From positions 291,517 to 355,516 of the forward strand of contig JBMORM010000009.1 of assembly GCA_049322675.1 (NCBI GenBank): a DNA stretch of 64,000 nucleotides, read 5' to 3'. Below, in pieces: positions 39,701-64,000 of the stretch. The notes beneath the pieces were generated by a model. It was given only the letters and a program-made list of their open reading frames with translations, had not been told where the DNA came from and made no database searches. A program made the translations under genes and the position numbers. Every line of letters begins with the position of its first letter. Positions within the stretch are counted from its first letter, which is position 1. Origin of the DNA: Patescibacteria group bacterium. GTDB taxonomy: Bacteria; Patescibacteriota; JAHJAL01.

Positions 39701-40182
39701 AAAAGGAACTTCCGGAAAATAAAATATTTCCGATAGTATCCGCAATTTTTCAGTCAGACTTAGGGATAAGTCACAAACAAGCAAATCGGAAAGATTTGGC
39801 CGGTGTTTTAGGTTTTTTGGGGTCGATGCTGACAAAAAATGAAAACATTGTCGCCAAATATACTGGTATGGGTTTATTGTTGGCAGGATCATTATCTTTG
39901 AAATCAGAAGATGAAGACTTTTATATCGCTGACGCCTATGCTTATGATTGGATGAAACAAAATGGCCTGGGATCCGATCAGGCTTTTTCTCTGTTGGATG
40001 CCGCGGGCAGACTAGAAAAATACCCAGGTAATGATCAGAAATATAATATTTTGGCGCCGCCGGCAAACAAAAGGTTGGAGGCGTTGACAAATTATATTTA
40101 TTGGCAGAATACTTATCCTTTGCCAATAACACCAGATATAATCGATTGGGAGAGGGCAGTAGAGAAAAAAGATAAAAATTAA
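36718..40182 (+). CDS. Giant secreted multidomain protein with an N-terminal C39-like papain-fold cysteine peptidase domain and a PHP-family phosphoesterase domain
   Basis: The signal peptide is MAKTKTIILIICILVFSGLTDQ. A Cys/His pair typical of the Peptidase_C39-like fold is present (..NWASCGYTS.. and ..GHVILIVGYDDNNWIVHDPAN..). A PHP motif follows (FHTGDLHNHSSWSGE). About 700 aa at the C-terminus are unassigned. Confidence 0.55.
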   Translation: MAKTKTIILIICILVFSGLTDQMGICGEKILYDVPYRNQVIDFPGWSQNWASCGYTSTLMNLLYCEALPSGMSEQSLIEKMYTDCSITTEDGSVIFYYEKLDEFCEQNIPEYDLEVRFIRDDFENKIKKTIDDEMPVICGTYIFGNVGHVILIVGYDDNNWIVHDPANDWGQERWPDGGFTWENADFVRFPIGSFTILYGASIFSENSKEFAAKIVEQSPTIVLSNEGEMKMLWVKLKNNGTSDWLQEKIHLGTYQPLDRLCGLVAKSDPEKYRWLGTKNRLMMEQKKVEPGQTAIFGIPMEKNNFVGNFPESFRLINDDQNGRWFGPTICWNIECLPTANINQPVSIFAGKYCFHTGDLHNHSSWSGEKTTVAQLVEQGKTNGLKFLGITDKAEKLGDNTNICQYLSEIKKVADEKQYILLAGIEYNVTNYGNEIYSPNESGIKAIGLGYNNLQPQDLPDWFPWETKGKKVTWEELVDWHFQHGLPLFIAHPLDKGKNGWSAKELIEKSMISKLEKLAGIEIFAKIHFSSLFAINGNNMIGLFNPGLNLENSIELYKNFLGPIGIGVFGGENPAKTIIATESSQLKTEQIIEAISKKKTVAVNNTAAIDFIKISNKEWAPGNWGQTIISGGQVKIEGQTLWLPNSSQQKCLYIIRNNKLVHKQLIEGRERINFSFTDNCHKPGKYGYQIAICEKRANQAEEGKLFTSPIYVEVKDEDQVENQMETVSEQQKELLVFTPTIHLGDSFYEGEINRGFKREKAESVLVTKIFSLSSEDLVNISDCQLQLELCGAQLEKNSNQGNPIVINCQKIGECLIPNEDPQKNNLVYKYAVPLSCLQTGNNELFIRSLPRAYFLRNGKTFIDFDDFEIRDIKLVFYYGKNNFRPDKNAVVSAKKIPLKNGSEELSFVSDQDLDDFSQESKKIIDDFEQKGGKFVVDKDPRYPQFLALIEPIVENIEKLPQRTTIKWKFFESNTLDPIALPDRTILVPTGLLTNEKELPENKIFPIVSAIFQSDLGISHKQANRKDLAGVLGFLGSMLTKNENIVAKYTGMGLLLAGSLSLKSEDEDFYIADAYAYDWMKQNGLGSDQAFSLLDAAGRLEKYPGNDQKYNILAPPANKRLEALTNYIYWQNTYPLPITPDIIDWERAVEKKDKN

Positions 40183-50360: not shown

Positions 50361-51266
50361 TTACTTTTCATAATGATGCAGTTTGTTATATATACTACTT
50401 TCTTTGTTTCTAAAAAATCCTTTTTGATTATCAGGTAATAGATCGGCGATTTTTTGACCAACCATATTTGCTTGTTCTCTCAGTTGTTTTATCACTTCAC
50501 GAAAATCGTCTCTTTCCTTTTGGGTTATTTTCTTTCCTTCTGATCTTTTGTAGAAAACCTCTTCGATGATATTTATTTTCGCAATTTTTTCGAGGGTTAT
50601 CGGTTGGCCGATATGAAAGATTGCTTTTCCATTGGCTTTACCCAATATACCTTTGGCAATATTGACTAGACCTTCCAAACTAATTGAGTTGCCGACAATT
50701 TCTAGGGCGGTCGGAATAATTTTTGTACCAGTTTTTTGGGCTAAATATATTGCTCCGATTTTTGGTTCTTTCATCTCTCCATCTTCATTGAAAGCATGAA
50801 TGGCTATCCATGGAGTTTTGCCGATTTTGATTCTTTCAAATATAGTCTCAAAATTTTTTGGATTAAACACTCCCGATTTTCCTTTGTTGGTTTTGTGATA
50901 ATCGAGGGGGATAAAGTTTTCTTCACCGCCAGTCCGAAATAACAACATACGCTGGGGGGCAAAACGGCGAAACGAAGATGATTCTGCGGTAATCTGCATG
51001 TCGAAAATATCTCCCAATGATTTAATGGCAGCAGGGGCGTCCAGATTGGAAAAATGTGAAGAAGCGATGACATATTTGTTCTCTGGATGTTTTTCTATTT
51101 CTTCTTTAATATTCTCCCTTCCCTCTACTTTAAATTCATTACAAAATTGATTTATCAGCAAATCACCCAGAGACCGCAATCTAAAATCGGTAGTCTTGCG
51201 GTTTTCTTCCACTTTGACGGTTTTGTCCTGGTTTTTAGAATAAAATTCTCTAATCTTACCTAGCAT
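50361..51266 (-). CDS. Lysophospholipid (1-acyl-sn-glycerol-3-phosphate) acyltransferase-family protein
   Basis: The HxxxxD acyltransferase motif (ASSHFSNLDAPA) is present. Confidence 0.6.
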   Translation of the reverse strand: MLGKIREFYSKNQDKTVKVEENRKTTDFRLRSLGDLLINQFCNEFKVEGRENIKEEIEKHPENKYVIASSHFSNLDAPAAIKSLGDIFDMQITAESSSFRRFAPQRMLLFRTGGEENFIPLDYHKTNKGKSGVFNPKNFETIFERIKIGKTPWIAIHAFNEDGEMKEPKIGAIYLAQKTGTKIIPTALEIVGNSISLEGLVNIAKGILGKANGKAIFHIGQPITLEKIAKINIIEEVFYKRSEGKKITQKERDDFREVIKQLREQANMVGQKIADLLPDNQKGFFRNKESSIYNKLHHYEK

Positions 51267-51344
51267 TGAATTTTTTATTAATTTAATTTTAAATCTGATT
51301 ATTGTAGCATAATTTCTTGATTATTTCCAGATATAAATTGGCAT

Positions 51345-51392
51345 AAAAAAACTCCCGGCATATGCGTCGGCGGACACGTAGATGGCGGGAGT
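51345..51392. terminator. Hairpin terminator, copy 2 (AAAAAAACTCCCGGCATATGCG...GGGAGTAAAAAAG)
   Basis: The stem is the same as at 50304. The loop contains CGGCGGACACG. On the minus strand it is followed by a T-run, directly after the stop at 51400. Confidence 0.5.
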
Positions 51393-51399
51393 AAAAAAG

Positions 51400-52176
51400 T
51401 TAGTTTTTGTTTTGATTTTGATTTTTTCCACACCCTACCCCAGGGTCTGGCAAGGTGTGAAAAATGCCGGCGGAGGACCGATCGTCCTCCTTTCTCATCC
51501 GCCAATACCATTTATGGTAATAGGGTGAGAAAAATATTGTTATTACCGTAAATAAAAACAGTAACAATAATAAAAGAAGGTGATCGGTTAAAACATTAAA
51601 ATTACTTGCCACCCAGCCGGCGAGGGCGGCGAAGAGAATGGAAATTCCCCAAGAAATGAAATAATCTAGTGGCAATCCCCCTACCCACGGGGACTTTGAA
51701 TGCCACCAGATATTTTGTGGTTTAAATTTTTCCCACTTATAATGGGGATTTAATATAAACCATAAAAAGTCCCAAAGGCACATGGCGACAAAGTACATGG
51801 CCAATGAGACTAATTCCCCTTTCAAACTCCATGCCAACCCCATGAAAAATTGGACATGGAATATCAAAAGAGGAAAAATGAACATAAAGGAGTGATAACC
51901 TGTCAGTGGTCTCCCTCCTAAAATTTTCATATAAATCTTTGCGGCCAGGCCCCTGGTACGATACCAGGTTGGCATCTTTTCGGCCCAACCGCACTTTCCC
52001 TCGGCCTCGACTTCTATGCCGGCGAGGACGAGGCAAAAAAGAAAAAAGAAGCCGGCTTTTAATAATAAAAAGGAGAAATGCAACATGCAAATCCCCTCCT
52101 TTCTTGAAAAAATTCGTTGCGACAAGAAAGACATGCAAAAAATATTATTACTAGCTGAAAAAATATTTCTTGCCAC
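51400..52176 (-). CDS. Hypothetical polytopic membrane protein (start uncertain)
   Basis: Several TM helices are present (..FFFLFCLVLAGI.., ..FIFPLLIFHVQFFMGLAW.., ..ISILFAALAGWVA..). Confidence 0.4.
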   Translation of the reverse strand: MARNIFSASNNIFCMSFLSQRIFSRKEGICMLHFSFLLLKAGFFFLFCLVLAGIEVEAEGKCGWAEKMPTWYRTRGLAAKIYMKILGGRPLTGYHSFMFIFPLLIFHVQFFMGLAWSLKGELVSLAMYFVAMCLWDFLWFILNPHYKWEKFKPQNIWWHSKSPWVGGLPLDYFISWGISILFAALAGWVASNFNVLTDHLLLLLLLFLFTVITIFFSPYYHKWYWRMRKEDDRSSAGIFHTLPDPGVGCGKNQNQNKN

Positions 52177-52291
52177 AACTTTTTAATGAACAAAAGTGGC
52201 TTTATTGTAGGGCTTTTTCGGTTAATTTGCTAGGGATTCATATTTTGTGAATATGGGAGAAAAATAGTATTATATAAGATAGTGGTTAGCG

Positions 52292-52404
52292 TAAATTTCC
52301 AATTTCCAAGGCTCAATTTCCAAAAAATTTCCAATAGTCAATTTCCAAATGATATAATTCATTGAAAATTGGACATTTTTTGGAAACTGGAAATTGGAAA
52401 TTTA
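52292..52404. repeat. TTCCAAT-rich intergenic palindromic repeat (copy H), just upstream of secA
   Basis: gtaaatttccaatttccaaggctcaatttccaaaaaatttccaatagtcaatttccaaatg ... attggacattttttggaaactggaaattggaaattt. Confidence 0.6.
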
Positions 52405-52427
52405 ATTTTTAATTATTAATTTTAAAT

Positions 52428-55130
52428 ATGAATATTATAAACTGGATATTTGGCGATCCTAATGTGAAGGAGATCAAGAAGCTGCAACCGTTGGTTGATA
52501 AGATTAATGGCTGGGAGGCCGAAATAAGTGGGTTGTCAGATGATGAATTGAAGGGAAAGACTGATTATTTCAAGAAAATTATTGCCGAGAGGTTGGTCAA
52601 AGGTGAGGAGCAGGAAAAAATATTGAATGATCTGTTGCCGGAAGCTTATGCGGTGGTGCGAGAAGCGAGTAAGCGAACGATTGGTTTGCGACATTTTAAT
52701 GTCCAGATGATTGGCGGTATTGTTTTACACCAAGGAAAGATTTCGGAAATGAAAACCGGAGAAGGCAAAACTTTGGTGGCTACTCTTCCTTTATACCTCA
52801 ATGCTTTGACCGGTAAAGGTTGCCATCTGGTGACGGTCAATGATTATCTGGCCAAACGTGACGCGGACTGGATGGGTGAGGTTTTTTACTTTTTGGGACT
52901 AAGCACAGGGGTAATAGTTCATGATCAGTCTTTTATCTTTGATCCGGGGGCGGTTAGAGAAGAAGAAGAAACAGTGGAAACCAAGGGAAAACAGTTGAAA
53001 TTCAGATTAAAGCAAGTCACGCGAAAAGATGCTTACAATGCCGATATTACCTATGGAACGAATAATGAATATGGTTTTGATTATTTGCGTGACAATATGG
53101 TGATTGAATTGTCGCAAATGGTCCAACGGGAGTTGAATTATGCGATCGTGGACGAAGTTGATAATATTTTGATTGACGAAGCGAGAACGCCACTGATTAT
53201 TTCCGGACCGGCGGAAGAATCAAACGAGATGTATCAACAATTTGCCAGTCTGGTGACAAAATTGAATGAAAACACTGATTACAATGTGGATGAGAAAATG
53301 CGAGCCGTGTCTTTGACGGAAGAAGGGATTAGTCATGTGGAAAATTTGTTGGGCGTCAAAAATGTTTATGAAGAAAAAGGGATAAAAACAGTTCATCACC
53401 TGGAGGAAGCTTTGAAGGCGCAGATTTTGTTTAAAGTTGATAAAGATTATGTTGTAAAAAATGGGGAAATAATCATCGTTGATGAATTTACCGGACGTCT
53501 GATGCCTGGTCGTCGTTATTCTCGCGGTTTGCACCAAGCGATCGAGGCCAAGGAGGGAGTGGAAATCAAACGGGAAAGTAAAACTATCGCCACTATTACT
53601 TTTCAAAATTATTTTAGGATTTACAAGAAATTGGCGGGCATGACCGGAACGGCCGTGACAGAGGCGGAAGAGTTGGCGGCGATTTATAAATTGGATGTAA
53701 TACTGATTCCAACCAATAAAGAGGTTGTCAGGAAAGATCTGAATGATTTGATTTATAAAACTGAAGAAGGAAAGTTTAACGCGGTGGCGGCGGATATTAA
53801 GGAAAAAAATTCCAAAGGGCAACCAGTATTGGTAGGTACAATATCGGTAGAAAAATCGGAAACTTTGAGTGATTTGTTGACCAGACAAGGAATCCAACAC
53901 AACGTATTGAACGCCAAGAATCATGAAAGAGAGTCAGATATCGTGGCATTGGCCGGACAAAAAGGGGCAGTGACTATTGCCACCAATATGGCCGGTCGCG
54001 GTACGGATATAAAATTGGGCGAAGGGGTGGAAGATTTGGGCGGGTTACATATTATTGGTACGGAAAGGCACGAATCAAGACGAATCGATAACCAGTTGCG
54101 AGGTCGTAGTGGACGTCAAGGAGATCCGGGATCTAGTCAATTTTACACTTCATTGGAAGATGATTTGATGCGAATTTTTGGGTCGGACAAGATTAAGGGA
54201 TTGATGGAAAAGTTTGGCTTTCCCGAAGATCAGCCGATAGAACACAAGTGGATTACTTCTTCGATTGAAGGCGCGCAAAAGAAGGTGGAAGGCTACAACT
54301 TTGATATTCGAAAAAGCGTAGTTGATTATGACGACGTAATGAATAAACATCGCACCGCAATATACAAAAAAAGACGGATGATTTTGGAAAATGCCAATTT
54401 GAAAGAAGAAATGCAGAAAATAATTCGTCAGGATATAGAAAGTATTGTTAATACTCATACTTCGGGAATTCAGGCGGAATGGAATTTGAAAGAGATAAAT
54501 GAAAATTTTAAAACGATTGTGGGTGCATATTTCGTCCCACAGGATTTGAGCAAATTTGATAACCCCCAAGGAATTATTGATCACCTGTATGAACAGGCGA
54601 TCCTTTATTATGACCACAAAGAAAAAGAACTGACACCGGAGGTGATGCGAAGATTGGAAAAATTGGTGATGCTGAGAATCATAGATAATTTGTGGCAAGA
54701 CCATTTGGATGAAATGGATTATTTGCGAACAGGGGTGGGTTTGCGGGGATATGGACAGAGAGACCCATTAATAGAATACAAAGAAGAAGCATATAAGCTT
54801 TATCAACAATTGTTGTTTCAAATCAATGATCAGATATCAAAAACAATCTATAAAGTGACAATTTTGCAAGCCCCTACCCAACCGGTAAAAGGTCAGGAAA
54901 TAAAAAGAGAGGCAGCGCCTATAACACCGGGCAATAGTCAAAATAGCGGTACTGAGGGAAATGTGCGAACTTATTCTCGATCAGGAAGCAGCGCTTCTTT
55001 GCCCCAGCAAACTAAAGCCAACCCAACCGGAAAAGCGGCAACCGTCACACGCAGCCAACCAAAAGTCGGGCGCAATGATCCTTGTCCTTGTGGGAGCGGG
55101 AAGAAGTATAAAAAATGCCATGGAGTCTAA
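52428..55130 (+). CDS. secA: Preprotein translocase ATPase SecA
   Basis: Both DEAD motor domains are present, and the protein is 900 aa. The C-terminus has the zinc-binding motif [14 protein letters not shown]. Confidence 0.9.
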
Positions 55131-56095
55131 AGATGGGAAAGTGGGTATTGATTTTCTGCTTTTTGCTTTTATTGTTTGTTCCTTTGAAATTTATCGGTTT
55201 TCTGCCGGTGAGTTCAGTAAATTTTTTAGTGGAATTTCAAGGCAAACAATATAATGGAGCGGATATAAAAATTTTATCCTGTCAAAAGAATTTTTCTGAG
55301 AGTTTGGAGGCTAACACAAAACAGTACGTCTCTGAAACAAAAGATGTAATTAATAATTGTTATTGGTATGTGGACAATATAAAATCCGACGACTACGCAA
55401 TTTACAAAATGCTAAATCAGATGACACGTCCGTGTTCGGTAGCGGTGAATGGAGTTTGTAAAACAAATGCTGTTATTGGGAGTTTTGAGAGATATCACCA
55501 GACTTATTTTGTCCCAGATAAATACAGAATTCACGTTGTGGACTACACAAATGACATTCATTGGACTTCGGAGCCGATTATCAAAAAGACGGTAAATGAG
55601 CAGATACTGGTCAAAATGTCAGATACAAAAAATATTCAGCTGGTAAATAGCGAGAGTTTTTATGGCGGGTTGTATATTGGTAATTTTTTCTTTGGAATAT
55701 TAATCTTATTGATAGCAAAAATAATAATTATTCTCTATTTTTCATCAAAATATCATCCGTTGAATAAAATAAATCCGGAAGACAGGTTGGATCAAATTGG
55801 CTTGAAAATTGATATTGAAGAAAATAATAATCGAAAAATTGGTTTAATTTTGACCACTTTGGTTTTGGGAATACTGTTTATGGGGATTTATTGGTTTGTT
55901 TTACCAGTAATGCTTCACCCCAAGTTTTTTGTTTTGGTTTTCGTTTTTGGTACCTTTCTGTTTGAAATACCGCTTTTATATTTTTTTAACAGAAAAAGAA
56001 TATCTTGGTGGCAGGCGTTGGAATTGGTTTTGTTGCCATATATTTTATTAACCGTAATTGGCTTTGTTCCATATAGTCGCTGGAGACACTATTGA
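55115..56095 (+). CDS. Hypothetical membrane protein
   Basis: An N-terminal TM helix is followed by about 200 soluble aa and then about 4 C-terminal TM helices. Confidence 0.4.
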
Positions 56096-56155
56096 TAATC
56101 AGGCCCTAAATCTATTTTTGGACGCGGTTTTGGAAAAAGTTAATTTTGGTGGAGA

Positions 56156-56791
56156 TTGGTTTTTCATGATTTCTTTTATTTGAAAATAATGAATAAATTT
56201 TGGCACAATAAATATTTACTGAATCTGTTTGTTTTCAATGGGATATTTGTTTTGGCAAGCGGTTTATTGGGACCCTTGTATGCTGTTTTTGTGGAAAAAA
56301 TCGACAATAGCGTGTTGGCTGTTAGTTTTTCTTGGGCGGCATTTTTGTTTTCCACTACATTTTTTTTGTTTTTGGTTGCAAGATATGCCGATCGAGTAAG
56401 GCCGCGAAAATATCTAGTGATGGCCGGGTATCTGATCCAAACAATAGTCTGGTTACTATATCCTAGTATTACAAGTTTGTGGCAACTGGTGGTTTTGCAA
56501 ATAGTGCTTGGTTCGGCCGAAGCTATGGGAGCGCCCACTTTTCAAGCTATGATTGCCGAACATTTGGATGATGGAAATAAAATTCAGGAGTTATCAGTCT
56601 GGAAAATAATTTTGAATGCCGCAACGGCAATAGCTGCAGTAACCGGAGGCCTCGTAGTAAACTTTTGGGGATTTGATGTTCTGTTTTATTTGATGGCTTG
56701 TTTGGCAATAATTTCTTTTTTGGGATTGTCGTTTAATTTAAAAGAAAGTAATGAAAAAACTCGGCCGCGAGGAAATAAAAAAGATATTTAA
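56156..56791 (+). CDS. Six-TM N-terminal half of an MFS transporter (truncated gene or half-transporter)
   Basis: MFS motif A (ARYADRVRPRKYL) lies between TM2 and TM3. Only 6 TM helices are present before the stop. Confidence 0.45.
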   Translation: MVFHDFFYLKIMNKFWHNKYLLNLFVFNGIFVLASGLLGPLYAVFVEKIDNSVLAVSFSWAAFLFSTTFFLFLVARYADRVRPRKYLVMAGYLIQTIVWLLYPSITSLWQLVVLQIVLGSAEAMGAPTFQAMIAEHLDDGNKIQELSVWKIILNAATAIAAVTGGLVVNFWGFDVLFYLMACLAIISFLGLSFNLKESNEKTRPRGNKKDI

Positions 56792-57179
56792 AAAAGTAAA
56801 GCACTTGCGATTGGCAGGTGATTTTGATGATGTAAATTTTGATGAGATAAAATATTACTCTTGGATTGACGAGACCAATAAGCGATGTTTGATGTTGTGT
56901 GATTACAAGGGAGAAATGACGGGGATTGTTTGGAAGATTTATCGAGCCAAAGAAGCCGCCATGAAATTGGGGCGGTGTGAAATATGTTTGAAACACCGGA
57001 AAAACAATGAAGTAATTTTTGTTTATACAAAAACCAAACACTTACCGAAAGGAATAGAATACAGAAGTCGGGGAAATTTTGTTTGTAGCAATTATCGAAA
57101 ATGTAATCAAGATATGAAAAATGAGGATGGTATCGAAAAATTATTTGATCTAATATTACAAAATGAAAAAAATATTTGA
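56751..57179 (+). CDS. Hypothetical Cys-containing protein (possible treble-clef zinc finger), start uncertain
   Basis: RCEICLKH...CSNYRKCNQD. The ORF overlaps the preceding gene's 3' end. Confidence 0.3.
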   Translation: MKKLGREEIKKIFKKVKHLRLAGDFDDVNFDEIKYYSWIDETNKRCLMLCDYKGEMTGIVWKIYRAKEAAMKLGRCEICLKHRKNNEVIFVYTKTKHLPKGIEYRSRGNFVCSNYRKCNQDMKNEDGIEKLFDLILQNEKNI

Positions 57180-57741
57180 AAAGTTGTCGAAAATTATTTT
57201 TAAAAAACAAATGGATAGGCCGAAACCGTGGAAAGAATTGTCTCGGGAGGTGGTTTTTGAGAAATTTAATCGCAAAGTGGAAGAGGTTAAGTTTTTAACT
57301 CCGGTCGGCAAAGAGGAAAAATATTGGATTCGCAATGAACAAAAAGTGGCTACTGTTTTGGCTTTGACGCCGGAAAAGAAAGTGATACTTTGTCAGCAAT
57401 TTAGACATGGTCCCAAAAAAGTTTTGACTGAATTTCCCGGAGGTTTGGTCAATGAGGGCGAGGAGCCGATAGTTGCGGCCAAACGAGAACTACTGGAAGA
57501 AACTGGATATAGCGGTAAAATGGAATTGGTAACATCTTATTTTGATGACGGTTATTCGACTCGGATTAGTTATGCTTTTGTCGCGACCGGTTGCAAGAAG
57601 ATTGGCAAACAAAAACTGGATACAACAGAATATATTCAAGTTAGATTATTTTCGTTGGACAGATTAAAGAGATTATTGAGAAGCGGTAATATGACTGATA
57701 TTGAGGTGGGTTATCTAGGTTTGGATTATTTGAGATTGTGA
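57163..57741 (+). CDS. Nudix hydrolase (ADP-ribose pyrophosphatase-like)
   Basis: The Nudix box is GGLVNEGEEPIVAAKRELLEETGY. Confidence 0.7.
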   Translation: MKKIFEKLSKIIFKKQMDRPKPWKELSREVVFEKFNRKVEEVKFLTPVGKEEKYWIRNEQKVATVLALTPEKKVILCQQFRHGPKKVLTEFPGGLVNEGEEPIVAAKRELLEETGYSGKMELVTSYFDDGYSTRISYAFVATGCKKIGKQKLDTTEYIQVRLFSLDRLKRLLRSGNMTDIEVGYLGLDYLRL

Positions 57742-57744
57742 TTT

Positions 57745-58218
57745 ATGTCGGAAGTAAAAAATTTATACTCAAAGGAAAATATGATTGAATTTAATTTTAA
57801 AAAAGAAAAGTCGTGTGGTTTTGTGGTTTATCAAAGGCCAGAAGAAGGAGAGATAAAATATTTATTGGTGCGACAAGGCAATAATACCTGGGGATTTCCG
57901 AAAGGACATATTGAAAATAATGAGAGTGAATTGCAAACAGCCATGAGGGAGTTGAAAGAAGAAACGGGACTGGAAGTGAGAATTTTTTTGGGATTCAAAG
58001 AAATAATCAGTTATCCTTTGGGCAAAAACGCAGTAAAAAAAGTTATATTTTTTTTGGGAGAAAGCGATACCGACGAGGTAAAATGCGATGGGGCGGAAAT
58101 TGTGGAATACCGGTGGTTACCTTACAATATCGCCCTAAGTCAGTTGTCTTTTGATGATCTAAAAAGAGTTTTGGAGAAGGCCGATGTTTGTTTGAATACG
58201 ATCAAGAGAAAAAAGTAG
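57745..58218 (+). CDS. Nudix hydrolase
   Basis: The Nudix box is GFPKGHIENNESELQTAMRELKEETGL. Confidence 0.7.
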   Translation: MSEVKNLYSKENMIEFNFKKEKSCGFVVYQRPEEGEIKYLLVRQGNNTWGFPKGHIENNESELQTAMRELKEETGLEVRIFLGFKEIISYPLGKNAVKKVIFFLGESDTDEVKCDGAEIVEYRWLPYNIALSQLSFDDLKRVLEKADVCLNTIKRKK

Positions 58219-58291
58219 CGAGATATGATTGTAAATAAATATTTTTTTTCTTATGATTATGGAGGAATAAAAAAATAATTGAGGAGAGAAA

Positions 58292-58972
58292 ATGGACGAA
58301 ATAAATCAGGTGCAGGGCACCAAAGAACCAAAAAATAATCAGGTTCTTTTTTTTGTTGTAGTGATTGTTTTGTTGGTGATTATTGTTGGCGGGTATATGT
58401 GGTGGAAATCAGGAAGTGATAAAAATAGACAAGGCAGTGAACAAAAAGTGGCGGAAGAACAAAATAGAAATCAGAGTGTGTTGAGTTTTTTTGGTTTGAT
58501 TAAAAATATTGAAGGGAACAATATCACGATATATGACGCAGGCAGCGGACAAACCGCAACTTTTGTTCGATCCGAAAATACTTCGGTAACCAAAGAAAAT
58601 ATTGTTACCCAAGGTTTTGACAAGATTAGTTTTGCCGAATTGAAGACAGGGCAAACCGTTAATCTGATGTACCAAAATGATCAGACAAAAACTCCGTTGT
58701 CGATAGTTGTGATGGGGGGAACCAATATCGCCGGAGAAGTAATCGAAACAAGTAATGATCAGATAACTATTAAAAATCAAACTGACACATACACAGTAAA
58801 ATTTAAAAAACAAACAAGTATAGTTCGTCTAGGAGATAATGGCAAAATGGAAAACAATTTGTCTTTGACTGAAATTAAAAAAGGAAATTACGTGACAGTG
58901 ACGGCAGAAAATAGATTGCAAAATGAGGAAAAAATAGTGGAAGCGGACAAGATTGAGATTTTATCTCAATAA
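58292..58972 (+). CDS. Hypothetical membrane-anchored protein
   Basis: An N-terminal TM helix (VLFFVVVIVLLVIIVGGYMWW) is followed by a beta-rich extracytoplasmic domain. Confidence 0.4.
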   Translation: MDEINQVQGTKEPKNNQVLFFVVVIVLLVIIVGGYMWWKSGSDKNRQGSEQKVAEEQNRNQSVLSFFGLIKNIEGNNITIYDAGSGQTATFVRSENTSVTKENIVTQGFDKISFAELKTGQTVNLMYQNDQTKTPLSIVVMGGTNIAGEVIETSNDQITIKNQTDTYTVKFKKQTSIVRLGDNGKMENNLSLTEIKKGNYVTVTAENRLQNEEKIVEADKIEILSQ

Positions 58973-58981
58973 AAAATTAAG

Positions 58982-59542
58982 ATGTCCAATAGAAAATTAA
59001 TATTTGCGTTTATTGGTTTTTCATTTGTCATCCTGATAGCGGCGATTTTGGTTGCGAGAGAAAAAAGTCCGAGCGTCAAGGAAAATACGATTGAAAAAAA
59101 AGTGGTTGGATTTATTGATCAACTCCAAGAGGACAGATTGGTTGTTGATGACGGAAAATATCTTTATGAATTCAAAAATTGGAAAGATAGCGATATTTTG
59201 TTGGCAAATCAAGCGATGCAGGCCGAGAAAGTAGATTGGAATATTTTAAAGGAATACGCCCCATTAGAACAAAAAATTGAGGTTAATTTTACTCAAAAAG
59301 AAGACGAAAGCGAGGTGCTGGAAATAATAATTTCTTTAAACAAGGCATGGACGGGAAGATTGAAAGAAATTGATTTGGAAAAAAAGACTTTGTCACTACA
59401 AGGAGATAATAAAATATTGGTATTCGCCAATGACAAAGTAAAAGGAATTGATTTAAAATCAGGTGATGAGATATCAATTTGGGTAGATTATGACCGAGTG
59501 ATAAAAAAATTTATTATAAGTAAAATACAATTAAATCAATAA
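58982..59542 (+). CDS. Hypothetical membrane-anchored protein
   Basis: The N-terminal TM helix is LIFAFIGFSFVILIAAILVA. Confidence 0.4.
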   Translation: MSNRKLIFAFIGFSFVILIAAILVAREKSPSVKENTIEKKVVGFIDQLQEDRLVVDDGKYLYEFKNWKDSDILLANQAMQAEKVDWNILKEYAPLEQKIEVNFTQKEDESEVLEIIISLNKAWTGRLKEIDLEKKTLSLQGDNKILVFANDKVKGIDLKSGDEISIWVDYDRVIKKFIISKIQLNQ

Positions 59543-60541
59543 ATGAGAAATTATTTTTTGGTATTGGTGATTGGATTATTTAGTTTTTTGGGATTCGGAA
59601 TACAGACGGCAAATGCTTGTGAAAATCAGCCAAAATTGGAGATCAAGAACAAAGGGGAAACAAATGAGGAATGGGTTTTGTCAGTTGATTTATCTGATCC
59701 TAGTTGCAAAACGGTAAAGAAATTTACCTGGTCGTATGATTGGTGGGATTATCAAGGACAGGCTGTACAAAGTGTTAAAGAAAAAGAGGTGGCCGACGGT
59801 GAAAGTATTTCTCTAAAACATGGCGACATGGTAACTATCACCGCCAGCATGTTTTCGCCGGTAACCAATAATGAATCTTCCGAGAGCGGTAATCCATGTT
59901 CCAATTTGCCGCCGGGAGTTTTGGGCTGTTCAACCGATGGAGGTAAAACATTTTATAGTTATACCAATAAGACAAAACGAGATACTGCCGGAGCAGACAG
60001 CTACAATGAATCGACAAATACTTATACTTATCAATTGATGCCCTATTCCGATTTTCCTCTCGAGGCAACGGTAGAATGCAACAAAACAACACCTAGTGTC
60101 CATTTGTATTGGATAGATTTTGAGACCAGGGCAAGAAGGGTTTCATCTTCAAGTACTGCTGATGGCGTGACTAGAAATGATAGTTTATTGTCACATGTTT
60201 TGGCATCGAGCGACGGGAGTAGTGCTTATGATTTCCGGATTTATCGGGGTAACGGGGAACAATATGAAGCGGAAAATTGCCGGGACAATTTGCCATATCA
60301 TTGCGTACAATCATCAGTTGATTCAACGCCCATCTACGAGAGAAATAATGATTGGGATTATGAAAATCCGGTGGGAACGTTGGCAAAGTATGGGTATGAT
60401 GAATTTTTAGATAGTAATGTAACTAATAATCAATACTATCACTATTTTGCTTCATATTCCGGTTCCAGCGGATCATATGGAGACTTGAATGCGGATTCAA
60501 ACTATCTGACTGTTTATGTCAATTGCCCTAACATGCAATAA
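59543..60541 (+). CDS. Hypothetical secreted Cys-containing protein
   Basis: The signal peptide is MRNYFLVLVIGLFSFLGFGIQTANA. Eight or more Cys are spread through the mature region. Confidence 0.45.
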   Translation: MRNYFLVLVIGLFSFLGFGIQTANACENQPKLEIKNKGETNEEWVLSVDLSDPSCKTVKKFTWSYDWWDYQGQAVQSVKEKEVADGESISLKHGDMVTITASMFSPVTNNESSESGNPCSNLPPGVLGCSTDGGKTFYSYTNKTKRDTAGADSYNESTNTYTYQLMPYSDFPLEATVECNKTTPSVHLYWIDFETRARRVSSSSTADGVTRNDSLLSHVLASSDGSSAYDFRIYRGNGEQYEAENCRDNLPYHCVQSSVDSTPIYERNNDWDYENPVGTLAKYGYDEFLDSNVTNNQYYHYFASYSGSSGSYGDLNADSNYLTVYVNCPNMQ

Positions 60542-60581
60542 TTTGCGGATAAAAATTTATTTTTAGTTAATTTTTTAAATA

Positions 60582-63500
60582 ATGAAAAATAAAGTATTTT
60601 TTGGTCTTGCGATCTTGATTGGTATCTTGCTTCCCACCATTGAGGTAAGGGCACAAGTAGCCGGTGAGGATATTCCTCGAGAACAAATTCAGACAAAGAT
60701 TATTCAATTGGCGGATGTGGAGATAGTTGACCCAAAAATACTTAAACAAAAGGATAATGTTGTTACCTTGTCTTGGCAGTTGACCAATGGTGACAATGTT
60801 CAGCCAGATGTCAATTATGGCGTAAAGCTGGTGAAATACATTGGCACAGATAAATTTTTGGTTGACGAATATCATTATGATCATGTGCTAAATATGGTCG
60901 CTGAGGAGAAAATTGATTTGGAGGCGGAATACAAGGCTCCCGCATATCTACAAGGCAAATACGAAATATGGATAAATGCCTTCAACAGCAATTCTATGAC
61001 TTTTGGTTTGGCTAGAGCGGGAGATATTGAATTGAATGGTAATGGCAAATATGTAGAAATCGAAACGCAAAGTTGTTTTTTGACCTTGGAAGGTGACGAA
61101 AACCAGACTTCTTACCAACCGTTGCAGGGTTTAACTGTCGATTCCCAAGAAAAATTATTGGCTCACTGTCCGACCAAAAATCTATTGGGAAAAGAAGCCA
61201 AAATAATCGGGAAGATTCAATTGTTTTATCGGTCGTTGGCCGGAGAAGAGATTGCTTCCGATACTAAGGATGATATGTTGACTTTGAAAATTGACGAAGA
61301 AAGAGAATATGTCCAGTTGTTGCCAAAACCACTTGATGCTAAACCTCAGGCTTATGAAGCTGTGTTAAAGTTTTTTGATGAACAAGGTCAACCAGTATCA
61401 AATATGGTTGTTTTTCATTTTGTCTTGACTGGTCCATCTGCCACCATACAAAATGTTACTTTGGACAAAGATGGTTACAAAAAGGGCGATATAGCACAAG
61501 TAACAGCTTATTGGACGGGAGCGGCAGACGACTATTTGAATTCCAGGTTAAAAGAAGGCGGCACACTGAATGAGTTGCAGATGATTTTGGAATTGAAAAA
61601 CGCTGAGGGACAAAGTTGTACAGAAATAAAGAAGGAAGTGTGGCCGATTAATACTGACAAACAAAAGGTTATCAGTTTGCCAATTGACAGAGAATGCACT
61701 CGACCAAATGTGATTTTGAGCTTGGCTGATAGCGACAGCGGCAAGATTTTGGACGAAAAAAAATATGATATCGTTACGCGACAGGACAATAATCGTAATA
61801 ATCTGATTTTAATCCTGACAATATTGTTGATTATAGTTGGTTTGATTTTGGTGATATGGTTTAGGAAAAGAGTAAAAGGAATTCACTTGTGGGTAGGTCT
61901 TTTTTTGGGAGTCGGAGCTTTATTTTTTTCCAACAAAGTCTATGCCAAAACATTTTTGGTAGAGGCGACCTGGGGAGCCACTACTATTGGAAGGATAGAA
62001 TATACCGTTAGTTTGGATAAAGCGACTTATGTTCAGGATGATCCAATGACTTATAGCATTTCCGTCAAAGATGCCAATTGTTTGAATCATTCTGCTCAAT
62101 CTGATTTTTTGGTCTGGATTGATGATGCTTTTGTCGCAGACGGAGATCATGGTCAGACCGATCCACAAAATCAGGCGGAAAGTTTGACACTGGGTGACAC
62201 AACATTAAATAATCCACCGAGTAATTTTGATGATAGTTTTTCTTCGATCGGGTTTATTGCTTCTCATGCTCCCAATGATTTGTCAAATCCGTATCATTTT
62301 TTACAAAGTCGTTTGGATGTAAGTATCAATTATGCTCCCGACCCGGGCAACCTGCATGATTTTGGACCATATTTTAGTTATAGTTCCGGTTTTGATATAC
62401 CTTATGTCATCAAGAGTGACCCGACTCCTCCGGCTCCACCACAAACTCTAACTGATCCAATAACCTATTTGGATAAAGATGTAACTGTTAATAATCCTCA
62501 ACCGGAATTTCCTTTAGAAAATTATACTCTTCGATATGAGAAAAGGTGCGACAGCGGCAATCCGATTGTAGATTTGCATTGGGAAAAATTTGATCAGGCG
62601 ACGCAGTATTATCTGGTCAGGAACAATAATCCAATCACGAGTATGTGGACAAATTATAGTTATGATTTGGGTGACGGTGGATTTATCGAAGGAGCCAAGA
62701 TGGAAGTGAGGGGTGATTATATAAAATACACTCAGGGTTTGACATATCAGGATCAAATAAATCCTTGCGCGGCAACTTGTTTTGGCAATGCAGCTTGTGT
62801 TAATGATTCAAATTGGGACGGAGTAATCGACACAACTCCATATTATTCAATTCGCGATTTGGATAATGACAGTACGGCGGATATCAATGATGTGGATTTT
62901 GGTTATGCTTCTCTACCTGACATAGACAATGACTTGGATAATGATGGCCTAACCAATGATGTTGATCCGGATATTGATAATGATGGTATATCAAATGACT
63001 TGGACCCGGATGATGACAATGATAGCGTCTTGGATATTTATGATGTTGATTGGGACAATGACCAAATAGTAAATTTGTTGGACCCAGATAGTGGAGGCGG
63101 GCAGAGTGATCTGGATAATGATTTGGACGATGATGGTCTGACCAATGACGTCGATCCAGATATTGACAATGATGGCACCTCAAATCAGGGTGGTAATGAT
63201 TGGGATGAAGACGGGATAGAAAATGATATCGATGTTGATGACGATGGCGATGGGATAGCTGATGCAGACGAGGTGGACACTGACGAAGATTTGGACAATG
63301 ATGGCTTGATCAATGATCAGGATCGGGATAACGATGGAGATGGTATTTTAAATTCAGAGGATGAAGACAATGATAATGACGGGTGGACAAACGATCTCGA
63401 CCCGAATAGCCGTGGCGGTAATCACAGTGACTGTTCAGCAGAGTATAGAGTCTATGCCCATGTTCCGATTATTAATTACAAAATGACTGTGGCGAGCGAA

Positions 63501-64000
63501 ACGCCGACGACGGTTGATTATGACTTACAGCTGGTGTTTTGGCCTGTGACGGAAAGATTTTTGTCTCATTACCGATTTCCGAGTTATTCGGTCGGATCGG
63601 CCAATACTGTACTTGTTCCTATGTATTGTTCCACTCCTGGACAACCGCCGGTAGTTGAAGAAATAAATTTGACAACCAGCGTGGATTGTTCCGATTATGA
63701 AAATCCAGAAGTCAATCTTGATTGGTCGGTGGTTTCTGATATCGAAAGTACGCACATAATCAAATTTGATGTTGACAATTATCCGCCGCGAAATATTTTG
63801 GCGATCAATCCAGTTACAGATACCGGTCTTGATGATGCGGCAATATCAAATAATAATACTTACGGGTACTATGTTCAGATAAAAAAGACAAGTGGCGAAT
63901 ATTTGTATTCCAATGAAAGAAAAGTAGTTGTCCAATGTACTCCTCCTGCACCAGATACTCTGACAATTGCCGGTGGTTGCAGCCAATGCAGCCAAGGCAA
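60582..64000 (+). CDS. Giant cell-surface protein (partial, >1139 aa, continues past the window end) with a signal peptide, an internal two-helix membrane hairpin and Asp-rich thrombospondin-type-3-like calcium-binding repeats
   Basis: The ATG is at 60582 and the signal peptide is MKNKVFFGLAILIGILLPTIEVRA. I found no stop by hand translation through 64000. The track lists no + ORF here, which is consistent with an open frame truncated by the window edge. The internal hairpin is LILILTILLIIVGLILVIWF-RKRVKG-IHLWVGLFLGVGALFF. Confidence 0.55.
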   Translation, partial: MKNKVFFGLAILIGILLPTIEVRAQVAGEDIPREQIQTKIIQLADVEIVDPKILKQKDNVVTLSWQLTNGDNVQPDVNYGVKLVKYIGTDKFLVDEYHYDHVLNMVAEEKIDLEAEYKAPAYLQGKYEIWINAFNSNSMTFGLARAGDIELNGNGKYVEIETQSCFLTLEGDENQTSYQPLQGLTVDSQEKLLAHCPTKNLLGKEAKIIGKIQLFYRSLAGEEIASDTKDDMLTLKIDEEREYVQLLPKPLDAKPQAYEAVLKFFDEQGQPVSNMVVFHFVLTGPSATIQNVTLDKDGYKKGDIAQVTAYWTGAADDYLNSRLKEGGTLNELQMILELKNAEGQSCTEIKKEVWPINTDKQKVISLPIDRECTRPNVILSLADSDSGKILDEKKYDIVTRQDNNRNNLILILTILLIIVGLILVIWFRKRVKGIHLWVGLFLGVGALFFSNKVYAKTFLVEATWGATTIGRIEYTVSLDKATYVQDDPMTYSISVKDANCLNHSAQSDFLVWIDDAFVADGDHGQTDPQNQAESLTLGDTTLNNPPSNFDDSFSSIGFIASHAPNDLSNPYHFLQSRLDVSINYAPDPGNLHDFGPYFSYSSGFDIPYVIKSDPTPPAPPQTLTDPITYLDKDVTVNNPQPEFPLENYTLRYEKRCDSGNPIVDLHWEKFDQATQYYLVRNNNPITSMWTNYSYDLGDGGFIEGAKMEVRGDYIKYTQGLTYQDQINPCAATCFGNAACVNDSNWDGVIDTTPYYSIRDLDNDSTADINDVDFGYASLPDIDNDLDNDGLTNDVDPDIDNDGISNDLDPDDDNDSVLDIYDVDWDNDQIVNLLDPDSGGGQSDLDNDLDDDGLTNDVDPDIDNDGTSNQGGNDWDEDGIENDIDVDDDGDGIADADEVDTDEDLDNDGLINDQDRDNDGDGILNSEDEDNDNDGWTNDLDPNSRGGNHSDCSAEYRVYAHVPIINYKMTVASETPTTVDYDLQLVFWPVTERFLSHYRFPSYSVGSANTVLVPMYCSTPGQPPVVEEINLTTSVDCSDYENPEVNLDWSVVSDIESTHIIKFDVDNYPPRNILAINPVTDTGLDDAAISNNNTYGYYVQIKKTSGEYLYSNERKVVVQCTPPAPDTLTIAGGCSQCSQG
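62890..63420 (+). repeat. Tandem DxDxDG-type Asp-rich repeats (TSP3-like) inside the giant ORF
   Basis: DNDLDNDGLTNDVDPDIDNDGISNDLDPDDDND ... DNDLDDDGLTNDVDPDIDNDGTSN ... DEDLDNDGLINDQDRDNDGDGILNSEDEDNDNDGWTNDLDP. The DNA is correspondingly repetitive (gataatgatgg units). Confidence 0.55.

Follow-up and report, generated by a model that had tools for sequence, protein, structure and literature searches.

A giant surface-type protein of Patescibacteria with an internal signal-peptide-like segment

Results

Genes at the locus

The last part of the window, the whole 64,000-nt stretch of DNA analysed, contains three small genes followed by the 5' part of a giant gene (Table 1). The third small gene directly adjoins the preceding one, and the giant gene begins 40 nt downstream of it. 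Each of the three upstream ORFs encodes a protein with a single hydrophobic N-terminal segment, as an earlier note on this DNA had stated; two of these segments are uncleaved-anchor-like and one, ending in QTANA↓C (↓, predicted cleavage site), is signal-peptide-like. None of the three proteins matched a Pfam or NCBIfam family above cutoff, and no significant similarity was found among them or with the giant protein (best BLASTP match of the 332-aa protein to the giant E=0.18, not significant). The 332-aa protein has no exact copy on record, and no counterpart of the upstream genes was found beside the giant's homologues at the other loci examined. The genes had been described as a cluster, which amounts to adjacency; the three upstream genes are neighbours only.

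Table 1 Features at the locus, in window coordinates; aa numbers of features from 60582 onwards refer to the giant protein
Feature	Position	Strand	Basis or remark
226-aa protein, one N-terminal TM anchor (NQVLFFVVVIVLLVIIVGGYMWW), small beta-rich ectodomain	58292..58972	+	
186-aa protein, N-terminal TM anchor (KLIFAFIGFSFVILIAAILVA)	58982..59542	+	
332-aa secreted protein, Cys-containing, signal peptide ...GFGIQTANA↓C	59543..60541	+	
Giant gene, first 1,139 of 2,681 codons (42%)	60582..64000	+	stop codon would end at window-equivalent 68627
Signal peptide SP1 (MKNKVFFGLAILIGILLPTIEVRA), aa 1-24, ...IEVRA↓Q	60582..60653	+	
N-module ectodomain, three beta-sandwich domains (aa 37-152, 158-282, 287-396)	60654..61793	+	
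TM1, aa 405-427 (RNNLILILTILLIIVGLILVIWF), stop-transfer anchor of N-module	61794..61862	+	
Basic cytoplasmic loop RKRVKG, aa 428-433, also n-region of internal signal peptide	61863..61880	+	
SP2, aa 434-455 (IHLWVGLFLGVGALFF-SNKVYA)	61881..61946	+	predicted site VYA↓KTF between nt 61946 and 61947
First passenger domain, aa 456-612, MG-like beta-sandwich	61947..62417	+	profile scores, AF2 strands
Pro-rich linker DPTPPAPPQT	62418-62447	+	after first passenger domain
Cys-initiated FnIII-like module (CDSGNPIVDLHWEKF...)	62547..62831	+	regex C...[VI]x[LF]xW
Asp/Asn-rich run, aa 767-950, presumed Ca2+-binding	62880..63431	+	motif counts vs shuffles

In-frame translation from position 60582 gave 1,139 codons without a stop up to the window end, in agreement with the open frame reported earlier; the ORF was absent from the ORF list because it runs off that end. 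Extension, which the earlier note had proposed as a check, was provided by a contig (L011) that is 100% identical to window positions 52371-64000 across 11,630 nt and continues the gene to a stop codon, giving 2,681 aa in full, so that the window contains just the first 42% of the protein. A GenBank protein (MFZ5391985.1, "CUB domain-containing protein", here P0021) is 100% identical to all 1,139 residues encoded in the window. The ORF is the genuine 5' part of a 2,681-residue surface-type protein of Patescibacteria (CPR).

It is highly improbable that the ORF is an artefact in which a sequencing or assembly error fused two neighbouring genes, or in which repeats collapsed in the Asp-rich region, and this reading is effectively refuted already. 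Frame errors or slippage are possible, as seen at a homologous locus (L007) where the reading frame changes between the two parts at an A8 run, but the longest homopolymer at the window junction is A4. The artefact is also contradicted by the identity of L011 to the window, by 142 fused members of the protein family that were assembled independently, and by cluster members of identical length, 2,681 aa, in NCBI/Logan, ENA and Logan assemblies. In a contig of a related MAG (L001) the junction is likewise in frame and the repeat layout is equal, with 98.6% nt identity over the repeat region, so the Asp-rich repeats are not a collapse artefact. Neither the stop codon or frameshift within 60582-64000 nor the assembly collapse that the earlier note had considered was found.

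The conserved N-terminal module

Residues 1-455 form a conserved module (N-module) of signal peptide, three beta-sandwich domains, TM anchor and basic loop, whose predicted structure shows three beta-sandwiches, all confident, and then two helices. Two Cys pairs, C165/C196 and C346/C372, are conserved. The N-module had no Pfam or NCBIfam match, and its top Foldseek match was RbmA. The family contains 2,407 cluster representatives at E<=1e-3 and 1,186 at E<=1e-30, and its named members are all CPR (Moranbacteria, Uhrbacteria, Campbellbacteria, Parcubacteria, Paceibacterota). Gln is the commonest +1 residue of the family's SP1 sites (31 of the 82 N-terminal sites that a simple rule identified). 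The homologues have only the N-module and the junction in common; their C-terminal parts differ. The signal peptide, TM1, the RKRVKG loop and the second hydrophobic segment are all present as previously described, and the prediction places the N-terminal domain (~380 aa; ~390 had been given) as well as the long C-terminal region outside the membrane.

The junction and its internal signal-peptide-like segment

In 142/142 fused members examined, TM1 is followed by a K/R loop and then by a second hydrophobic segment; this join is common to a large unannotated CPR protein family, with medians of 9 aa for the length of the loop and +3 for its net charge. Across the family the second segment, SP2, has the n/h/c organisation of type I signal peptides, with A-x-A↓D-T-F at its end. 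The -1 residue of fused members was Ala in 135/141 and the -3 residue Ala or Val in 129/141, frequencies which are partly circular because the site finder demanded small residues at these positions. Positions +1 to +3 were not selected for and are not circular; the residues there were Asp (75/141), Thr (98/141) and Phe (68/141). Helix-breaking residues (G/P/S/N) at -6 to -4 are kept across members that are ~25-35% identical. By a crude measure, the same for both, the uncharged span had a median of 21 residues in the internal segment versus ~15 in N-terminal signal peptides. An internal segment with a 21-residue span is long enough to remain a TM helix. A search of the 64-kb window for a signal peptidase I motif gave none.

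Stand-alone N-modules stop after TM1 and a basic tail. At four such split loci (L003, L008, L009, L010) the gene that follows overlaps the N-module gene or begins 5-30 nt from it, and the downstream protein has its own N-terminal signal peptide, ending ASA↓YTY, ASA↓DVF, AKA↓DSF or SKA↓DTF. Its mature N-terminus fits the post-junction profile in three of the four (not L008), with up to 53 bits; the scores of split-locus partners were 53.3, 35.9 (frameshifted L007), 16.2 and 11.1 bits. Multi-unit chains also occur, P0020 having the layout SP-Nmod-TM-SP-Nmod-TM-SP-passenger and P0015 and P0066 similar ones. In these chains the +1 residue goes with the downstream unit (Q ahead of an N-module), and P0066 has an in-frame Met at the start of every internal signal peptide.

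Given the signal-peptide features of SP2 and the split-gene homology, the halves of the giant are best read as two fused secretory units, probably cut apart by signal peptidase. The segments and the positive loop of the two-helix hairpin proposed in the earlier note are retained, whereas the second helix, with its type I signal peptide layout, looks like an internal export signal and not just an anchor helix.

Domains of the passenger

The first passenger domain, for which AF2 predicted strands at aa 451-520 (pLDDT 70-81 for aa 451-500), carries the conserved motif [LT]-[DN]-K-x-x-Y-x-x-[GD]-[ED], here SLDKATYVQDD, and is kept in most fused members and in split-locus partners. The Cys-initiated modules, to which an FnIII-like fold is putatively assigned, start at aa 656, 1036, 1133 and 1902 of P0021, the second and third corresponding to positions 63687 and 63978 and others lying beyond the window. 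The Pfam CUB model (PF00431) matched the giant with 94 bits (E 6.6e-27, 3 scored stretches); four copies of the CUB motif are present, at aa 1182, 1429, 1736 and 1942, all outside the window, and the passenger also has two ~130-aa repeats. At the C-terminus, NCBIfam NF058581 CPR_Pam_pilin_C matched aa 2532-2681 over profile positions 3-148/148 (E 2.4e-7), with a score of 31 bits that is below the NCBI cutoff of 55, and among 179 family members this giant alone had the match; the C-terminal domain weakly resembles a Pam-pilin donor-strand acceptor. Neither a C-terminal TM segment nor LPXTG was found in the passenger. The earlier proposal of a giant surface protein is supported, the protein being Sec-exported and of cell-surface type, and the FnIII-like, MG-like, four CUB and Pam-pilin-like domains would fit an adhesin-like role.

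Asp makes up 33.5% and Asp+Asn 46% of aa 761-960. The Asp-rich run, previously placed at 62890-63420, is present with corrected boundaries of 62880-63431, and contains the hexamer D.D.DG 11 times and, in 8 places, a full 12-residue loop of the form D-x-[DN]-x-[DN]-G-x-x-[DN]-x-x-[DE]. In its relaxed form the hexamer was counted 11 times in the region, compared with a mean of 1.8 and a maximum of 8 in 2,000 composition-preserving shuffles, and TRF reported a 39-nt period with 2.2 copies at 62937-63023. Pfam TSP_3 did not match the run even at E<=10, the run has zero Cys, and a PDB sequence search gave only a weak match, Bam M (E=0.16). From the earlier designation as TSP3 or calcium-binding repeats the DxDxDG calcium-loop pattern is kept and the TSP3 family assignment is not; the run appears TSP3-like or EF-hand-like in motif only, and the pattern suggests that it may bind, and depend on, Ca2+.

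Discussion

The giant is best explained, with moderate confidence, as a two-part, Sec-exported, polyprotein-like precursor consisting of the N-module and an internally signalled, adhesin-like passenger that is probably cleaved off. Sec would insert the precursor and SP1 would be cleaved, placing the three beta-sandwich domains outside the cell; TM1 would then stop transfer, leaving the short basic loop at the end of part 1 (aa 1-433) in the cytoplasm, and the internal signal peptide (aa 434-455) would restart translocation. A cut at the signal-peptidase-I-type site VYA↓KTF would free a 2,226-aa passenger with the MG-like domain, Cys-capped FnIII-like modules, about 8-11 Ca2+-type DxDxDG loops, the four CUB domains, the two ~130-aa repeats and, at the C-terminus, a domain with a distant likeness to the donor-strand acceptor of Pam pilins. 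The N-module would remain in the membrane with the spent signal peptide as second helix, most likely as a dock or assembly partner holding the passenger at the cell surface, and the passenger could attach to a host or partner cell as a long adhesin stiffened by Ca2+.

Signal-peptidase-processed polyproteins include Bradyrhizobium FbcH, a precursor of cytochrome b-c1 that is cleaved at an internal signal peptide, and the envelope polyproteins of flaviviruses and bunyaviruses; from these, the general signal peptidase produces individual proteins, membrane-bound or exported, in a fixed ratio. The giant shares with them a single ORF with alternating stop-transfer and internal signal sequences. It differs in that its units are surface beta-sandwich/adhesin proteins of a monoderm-type CPR cell, that its cleavage is predicted from sequence, and that the CPR junction, conserved across thousands of family members, occurs both fused and split.

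According to the model of the earlier note, the two hydrophobic segments form an uncleaved helical hairpin and the giant is one covalent polypeptide tethered mid-chain by both. The topology (SP1, outside, TM1, positive loop inside, helix 2, outside) is fully consistent with such an anchor, the uncharged span of the second segment could cross the membrane, and the surface retention of a passenger with neither C-terminal TM nor LPXTG would be accounted for. The near-invariant -1 Ala and -3 Ala/Val and the residues kept at -6 to -4 at such low identity would, however, be difficult to account for if recognition by signal peptidase were not under selection. In separate genes, moreover, the homologues of SP2 are bona fide N-terminal signal peptides, and the flanking residues go with the downstream unit in multi-unit chains; the uncleaved hairpin is considered rather unlikely.

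The other alternative, that the passenger is the tip adhesin or a pilin of a Pam-type (donor-strand-exchange) pilus, is compatible with the cleaved two-part precursor and bears only on the way in which the passenger is retained. The Pam pilus of Ca. Mycosynbacter amalyticus has PamA/B pilins, whose C-terminal domain is a donor-strand acceptor, the tip pilin PamT, the TM-anchored chaperones PamC/D and the RbmA-like, TM-anchored PamR (10.64898/2026.03.03.709456). Like this system, the giant is CPR-specific, Sec-exported and made of beta-sandwich modules. The Pam pilin C-terminal model aligns over its full length with the final 150 aa of the giant, at a score below the curated cutoff, and the Pam model puts an acceptor-domain protein at the tip. 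The N-module, with RbmA as its top structural match, shares with PamC/D/R the layout of a signal peptide, tandem beta-sandwiches and a C-terminal TM helix, but it has three domains. Unlike the Pam proteins, the giant is ~50 times larger than the tip pilin, no pam-type operon was found within 10 kb of its gene, and its anchor-like module and passenger are fused via a TM-plus-signal-peptide junction that is not described for Pam (10.64898/2026.03.03.709456). Membership of a Pam-type pilus is, on balance, doubtful.

Giant Ca2+-dependent bacterial adhesins for attachment to other cells are known among the RTX adhesins (MpIBP, LapA, SiiE, FrhA), which use type I secretion with a C-terminal signal and have GGxGxD repeats and an N-terminal plug in the outer-membrane pore (PMC5550230, PMC6272769). 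They resemble the giant in being modular Ig-like arrays of several thousand residues that combine acidic elements for Ca2+ binding with ligand-binding modules close to the distal end, whereas the giant carries Sec signals at its N-terminus and internally, gave no RTX match and lacks an outer membrane in which a plug could sit. TSP3 repeats (Pfam PF02412; bacterial OmpA-family) share with the Asp-rich run tandem D-x-D-x-D-G-x-x-[DN]-x-x-D loops with a period of ~13 residues, but true TSP3 is stapled by Cys residues which the run lacks, and position 9 of the giant's loops is usually Asn, then Asp. The CUB domains, with their clear HMM match, are of the metazoan type, found here in a bacterial (CPR) host instead of animal extracellular matrix or complement.

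Full length and authenticity of the giant open reading frame

The earlier note had reported an open reading frame starting at 60582 on the forward strand and staying open to the window end. In-frame translation of 60582-64000 confirmed this, giving 1,139 codons and no stop; the frame escaped the mechanical ORF list only because its stop lies beyond the window end. Extension of the contig, which the note had asked for, was possible with a Logan contig (L011) that is 100 % identical to window positions 52371-64000 over 11,630 nt and carries the gene to its stop codon at the window-equivalent coordinate 68627. The complete protein has 2,681 amino acids, the part of the gene inside the window being the first 42 %. 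It is known already as a deposited sequence (P0021, GenBank MFZ5391985.1), identical at all 1,139 residues encoded in the window and annotated as no more than "CUB domain-containing". The length of 2,681 amino acids recurs in further proteins of the same cluster that come from ENA and Logan assemblies. In DAIRGB01, a metagenome-assembled genome of a related strain, the gene is divided between two contigs (L002 and L001), with the in-frame junction and, at a nucleotide identity of 98.6 %, the Asp-repeat layout as in the window. The doubts that the note had raised about its own claim have not been borne out, because no frameshift, stop codon or repeat collapse accounts for the feature; L011, P0021 and DAIRGB01 agree, and it is highly improbable that an assembly or sequencing error produced the giant ORF.

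The two DAIRGB01 contigs have 88-90 % nucleotide identity with window 50641-61652, a stretch that takes in SecA, the small genes and ~1,070 nt at the 5' end of the giant gene. From window position 61581 on, the identity climbs to 98.6 %, and the contig break sits at the switch, suggesting either strain mixing in the bin or a recent recombination of the passenger-encoding part.

Domain composition of the protein

The protein consists of an N-terminal module that is conserved among CPR bacteria (N-module), an internal segment resembling a signal peptide (SP2) and a long C-terminal passenger, with the features collected in the table below. The three beta-sandwiches of the N-module ectodomain were predicted by AlphaFold2 with family alignments (pLDDT 80 and 75, pTM 0.73), and its two Cys pairs (C165 with C196 and C346 with C372) are invariant. 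No conserved motif was seen before the TM1 helix in the family alignment.

Features of the giant protein and their positions
Feature	Position (aa)	Remarks
SP1, N-terminal signal peptide	1-24	ends ...IEVRA, then Q
N-module ectodomain	25-404	beta-sandwich domains at 37-152, 158-282 and 287-396
TM1 helix	405-427	
Basic loop	428-433	RKRVKG
SP2, internal signal-peptide-like segment	434-455	IHLWVGLFLGVGALFF-SNKVYA
Beta domain	456-612	MG-type motif SLDKATYVQDD
Pro-rich linker	613-622	
Cys-initiated FnIII-like module	from 656	
Asp-rich run	767-950	
Further Cys-initiated modules	from 1036 and from 1133	
Four CUB domains	1182-2050	motif copies at 1182, 1429, 1736 and 1942; beyond the window end
More FnIII-like modules		beyond the window end
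Two repeats of ~130 aa	2236-2487	beyond the window
C-terminal 150-aa domain		beyond the window; match to NF058581 CPR_Pam_pilin_C

Searches of Pfam and NCBIfam with the 1,139 amino acids encoded in the window gave nothing usable, nor did Pfam searches with the isolated Asp-rich run and with residues 456-773 give any match. The CUB domains (Pfam PF00431) were recognized at 94.4 bits (cutoff 21.4, E 6.6e-27). P0021 has no LPXTG motif and no C-terminal hydrophobic or transmembrane segment, as would be found in a sortase anchor, and ends in ...SLMYICTPTF. No match to the HemolysinCabind/RTX families of Pfam and NCBIfam was found in the giant protein, placing it outside the RTX/type I secreted proteins.

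The Asp-rich run contains 11 D.D.DG hexamers, and eight full loops of the form D-x-[DN]-x-[DN]-G-x-x-[DN]-x-x-[DE]. The motif is regarded as real because composition-preserving shuffles gave, by the relaxed pattern, 1.8 hexamers on average and never more than 8, as against 11 by the same pattern in the run. The earlier note had described these repeats as of the thrombospondin type 3 (TSP3) or calcium-binding type, and the motif itself was upheld, whereas membership of the thrombospondin family was not, since Pfam TSP_3 (PF02412) was unmatched and the Cys residues that lie between the loops in TSP3 disulfides are absent from the run. The TSP_3 search was negative at E<=1 with the whole window protein and at E<=10 with the isolated 182-aa run and with P0021, a null result to which the HMMER composition filter may contribute. 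A PDB sequence search with the run returned just a weak compositional match (Bam M, E 0.16). The run is best described as a DxDxDG-type array, TSP3-like or EF-hand-like and presumably Ca2+-binding. The passenger combines spacers of the FnIII-like and MG-like types with acidic Ca loops and CUB modules, which is, we think, the content expected of a long, Ca2+-stiffened adhesin.

The N-module family

Homologues of the window protein align with it only from residue 1 to ~400-550 and differ in their C-terminal parts. A profile of residues 1-469, run against 1.84 billion cluster representatives, matched 2,407 of them at E<=1e-3 and 1,186 of them at E<=1e-30. The members share a signal peptide, a ~370-aa three-domain ectodomain, the motif SATIQN...LDKD.Y, a transmembrane helix and a basic segment, and the window protein belongs to this family with a score of 552 bits against its profile (A2). 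All named members are from CPR bacteria (Moranbacteria, Uhrbacteria, Campbellbacteria, Parcubacteria and Paceibacterota). No model in Pfam or NCBIfam covers the family; many CPR-enriched families are unannotated membrane proteins (Meheust et al., 10.1101/335083). In the word-indexed protein search a 13-sequence alignment gave fewer matches than a single sequence, probably because words from the transmembrane helix swamped the candidates.

The N-modules frequently have Gln directly behind their N-terminal signal peptide (31 of 82 sites, for example VRA/Q, ALA/Q and ARA/Q, the slash marking the predicted cleavage site), as does the window protein from 60654 on. This recalls the "Q-rule" described for SPase I substrates of Bacteroidetes (PMC5837995).

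The junction between the two secretory units

The segment after TM1 in the giant protein reads RKRVKG, IHLWVGLFLGVGALFF and SNKVYA, followed by K, that is, a positively charged n-region, a hydrophobic h-region and a polar c-region, as in a Sec/SPase I signal peptide. The mature passenger is predicted to start with K456-TFLVEATWGATTIGR. The same arrangement was found in all 142 members, among the 156 read, that continue past TM1. In each of them TM1 is followed by a loop rich in K/R (median 9 aa, net charge +3), then by another hydrophobic stretch and last by a few polar residues up to a small-x-small site. At the junction site, position -1 is Ala in 135 of 141 members and position -3 is Ala or Val in 129 of 141, frequencies that are partly circular as the site finder demanded small residues there. 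Positions +1 to +3 were not selected, and they have D in 75, T in 98 and F in 68 of the 141 members, giving the consensus A-x-A/D-T-F. Because these three positions are conserved without having been selected for, the sites are considered homologous; the cleavage-type motif is conserved across members that are only ~25-35 % identical.

N-modules also occur alone. Of the first set, 11 proteins end right behind TM1 and a basic tail, as do the majority of the 26 matches in another search. At four loci (L003, L008, L009 and L010) the next gene follows a stand-alone N-module at 5-30 nt or overlaps with it, and the encoded proteins have their own N-terminal signal peptides, ending in ASA/YTY, ASA/DVF, AKA/DSF and SKA/DTF. 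At all the split loci but L008 the mature N-terminus matches the post-junction domain profile, with 53.3, 16.2 and 11.1 bits. The family profile was needed for this, as BLASTP found no match between the post-junction region of the window protein and the L003 downstream protein. Two N-modules, or three secretory units, may also be chained in one ORF: P0020 has the order signal peptide, N-module, TM helix, signal peptide, N-module, TM helix, signal peptide and passenger, with comparable chains in P0015 and P0066. What comes past an internal site tracks the downstream unit, being Gln before an N-module, as at many of the N-terminal sites, and D-T-F before a passenger.

The stand-alone N-modules, the split-gene partners and the chained units are the reasons for regarding SP2 as a signal peptide and not merely as a second anchor helix. 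The earlier note had seen here a two-helix hairpin with an RKRVKG turn; TM1, the basic loop and a second hydrophobic segment are present as described, but the second helix reads as a signal peptide, from the A-x-A site seen across the family and the homology to the signal peptides of split genes. The stand-alone, split and chained states together argue that the family arose when neighbouring secretory genes were fused in frame and the signal peptide of the downstream gene was kept.

L007 was considered as a split locus and rejected, since the frame is broken in an A8 run and the second part has no start codon. In this locus (L007:7230-7420; ENA ERZ28614920 scaffold_44, P0161) the N-module ORF and the passenger are out of frame across the A8 that codes for the Lys-rich loop, which could be a sequencing error, a pseudogene, or a slippage-based (phase-variable) uncoupling of anchor and cargo. 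The chained protein P0066 has an in-frame Met at the start of each internal signal peptide, where internal translation starts are conceivable. In another member, P0012, the internal hydrophobic segment (aa ~395-420) ends in ...FSFGVFG/C, which is lipobox-like, instead of A-x-A, suggesting that the passenger may be lipid-anchored in some lineages. The passenger of P0006 (L005:10001-12331) has a Hint/Vint-type autoprocessing domain (weak match to Pfam PF14623; CFIADTLVTLANGTKK...), and its gene adjoins the EF-Tu and ribosomal protein operon, with a secreted PKD-domain protein coming next. Three loci of the Paceibacteria type (L003:9580-9825, L008:5592-5828 and L010:5580-5828) share a small basic ORF (78-82 aa; MRRYRSQRIQKT..ALSGAALASTMMF...), which follows pgk, directly precedes the stand-alone N-module and is absent from the window.

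Proposed processing and display of the passenger

The topology signals read in the giant protein are SP1, a stop-transfer TM1, a positive-inside loop and SP2. We consider it probable, though well short of certain, that the protein is a Sec-exported precursor which is cut after A455 into a membrane-bound N-module and a passenger of 2,226 amino acids, for which the N-module serves as a dock. The precursor would be inserted co-translationally by Sec, SP2 would re-initiate export, and signal peptidase I would cut at VYA/KTF, leaving the N-module in the membrane, with SP2 as a second helix, and a free passenger. We think that the N-module would then retain the cargo as its dock or assembly partner, since adjacency or fusion of the two has been kept and the cargo is conserved in its new N-terminus and the MG-like domain that comes first, the remainder being variable. 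A regular-expression search for the signal peptidase I catalytic motif found none in the 64-kb window.

If, as the earlier note proposed, the hairpin stayed uncleaved with both hydrophobic segments in the membrane, the retention of the passenger would be solved, and the uncharged span of SP2 (median 21 residues, vs ~15 for N-terminal signals by the same crude rule) could cross the membrane. The near-invariant A-x-A would, however, be left unexplained, as would the homology of SP2 to real signal peptides, and an uncleaved hairpin is considered the less likely reading. A possible role of the passenger as tip or subunit of a Pam-type pilus is compatible with cleavage and docking and would be an addition to it. 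A 2026 preprint describes CPR pili in which each pilin has at its C-terminus a truncated Ig-like domain, the acceptor of a donor strand, and to which belong chaperones (PamC/D) and an RbmA-like terminator (PamR), all of them TM-anchored (10.64898/2026.03.03.709456). Pam pilins combine a nine-strand N-terminal domain and a linker donor strand with the C-terminal domain that follows. The C-terminal domain of the giant protein resembles this acceptor domain, and RbmA was the top Foldseek match of the N-module. The match of the last 150 amino acids to NF058581 (profile positions 3-148 of 148, E 2.4e-7) scored 31 bits against a curated cutoff of 55, however, and is likely to reflect distant homology, not certified membership. 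There is also no pam operon near the giant gene: its neighbours (SecA, a truncated MFS protein, an FBP_C protein, two NUDIX proteins, three small membrane or secreted proteins, a nucleoside deoxyribosyltransferase and a PAS-histidine-kinase hybrid) include neither PamC/D chaperones nor other pilins, and no second copy of the Pam-like domain was found in the window or the loci. The domain occurs in no other family member and was rejected as a family feature (1 of 179 members). Weak as it is, the Pam link suggests that the occurrence of these pili, or of the principle by which they assemble, may not be limited to Saccharimonadia and Microgenomatia.

CPR bacteria (Patescibacteria) account for much of bacterial diversity; they lack an outer membrane and live in attachment to host cells, and to our knowledge little has been described of the way in which their attachment proteins are displayed and held. 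A CPR-wide dock-and-cargo display system is plausible but unproven. Spelled out in full it becomes tentative and on balance doubtful: an anchored three-domain dock and its cargo would be encoded by adjacent genes or as one polyprotein, in which TM anchor, basic loop and internal signal peptide join the two and signal peptidase I cuts co-translationally. The D-T-F N-terminus and first MG-like domain of the cargo would bind the dock non-covalently, perhaps by strand complementation of the kind found in Pam and chaperone-usher systems, so that variable adhesins, including the 2,226-aa giant with its CUB domains and Ca loops, would be displayed 1:1 without sortase or outer membrane. Poly-A slippage in the Lys-loop tract, of which L007 may be a case, could act as a phase switch uncoupling dock and cargo.

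Giant modular Ca-dependent adhesins are well known as type I secreted RTX proteins, with GGxGxD nonapeptide repeats, a C-terminal T1SS signal and no signal peptide at the N-terminus, whereas the present protein is Sec-dependent and has an N-terminal signal peptide of the classical kind. Viral envelope polyproteins are known to contain internal signal peptides that signal peptidase cuts, and the cytochrome b-c1 precursor FbcH of Bradyrhizobium reportedly has one as well. No description of such a junction in bacterial surface proteins or CPR was found in the literature searched, and searches on CPR giant adhesins, bacterial internal signal peptides and FbcH returned nothing directly relevant. 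The protein would thus class as a giant adhesin combined with polyprotein-like processing, both kinds being known separately. The gene by itself encodes a fairly ordinary large surface protein, and what was unexpected is that the junction is conserved, that it exists split, fused and chained, and that the unannotated family is so large. What is gained is the full anatomy of one giant CPR surface protein, a conserved unannotated anchor module with ~2,400 cluster representatives, and a testable mechanism, an internal signal peptide with polyprotein-like processing, tying this module to a highly variable cargo. Should cleavage and docking be confirmed, this would be a new general route of bacterial surface display, and host-interaction proteins in CPR genomes could be predicted as whatever follows the A-x-A/D-T-F junction.

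Upstream genes and other open reading frames

Three ORFs on the same strand precede the giant gene (58292-58972, 58982-59542 and 59543-60541, encoding 226, 186 and 332 aa), with gaps of 9, 0 and 40 nt, the last being that before the giant gene. All three proteins have N-terminal anchors or a signal peptide, as expected from the earlier description of the region as a cluster of anchored or secreted proteins, but a functional tie to the giant protein was not supported: they were rejected as its paralogues or partners, having no significant similarity to it or to each other and no counterparts beside the homologues elsewhere. None has a family in Pfam or NCBIfam, and an exact-sequence look-up of the 332-aa protein gave no record. 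A promoter and terminator scan of 57600-61000 was uninformative, with counts near shuffle expectation and no plus-strand terminator-like site between the genes. The three genes may be co-transcribed.

Further upstream, 55115-56095 (+) encodes a multi-pass membrane protein of 326 aa (320 aa as called in L011) without a family match, its start overlapping the end of secA (52428-55130) by 16 nt. The MFS ORF at 56156-56791 (+; 211 aa, 179 aa in L011) matches positions 2-181 of the 347 of the MFS_1 profile and may be a truncated or split transporter gene. A 669-aa protein encoded at 27242-29251 (+) has no NCBIfam match, and the 1,154-aa protein encoded at 36718-40182 (+) has a weak match to PHP/CehA-McbA metallohydrolases at residues 357-505.
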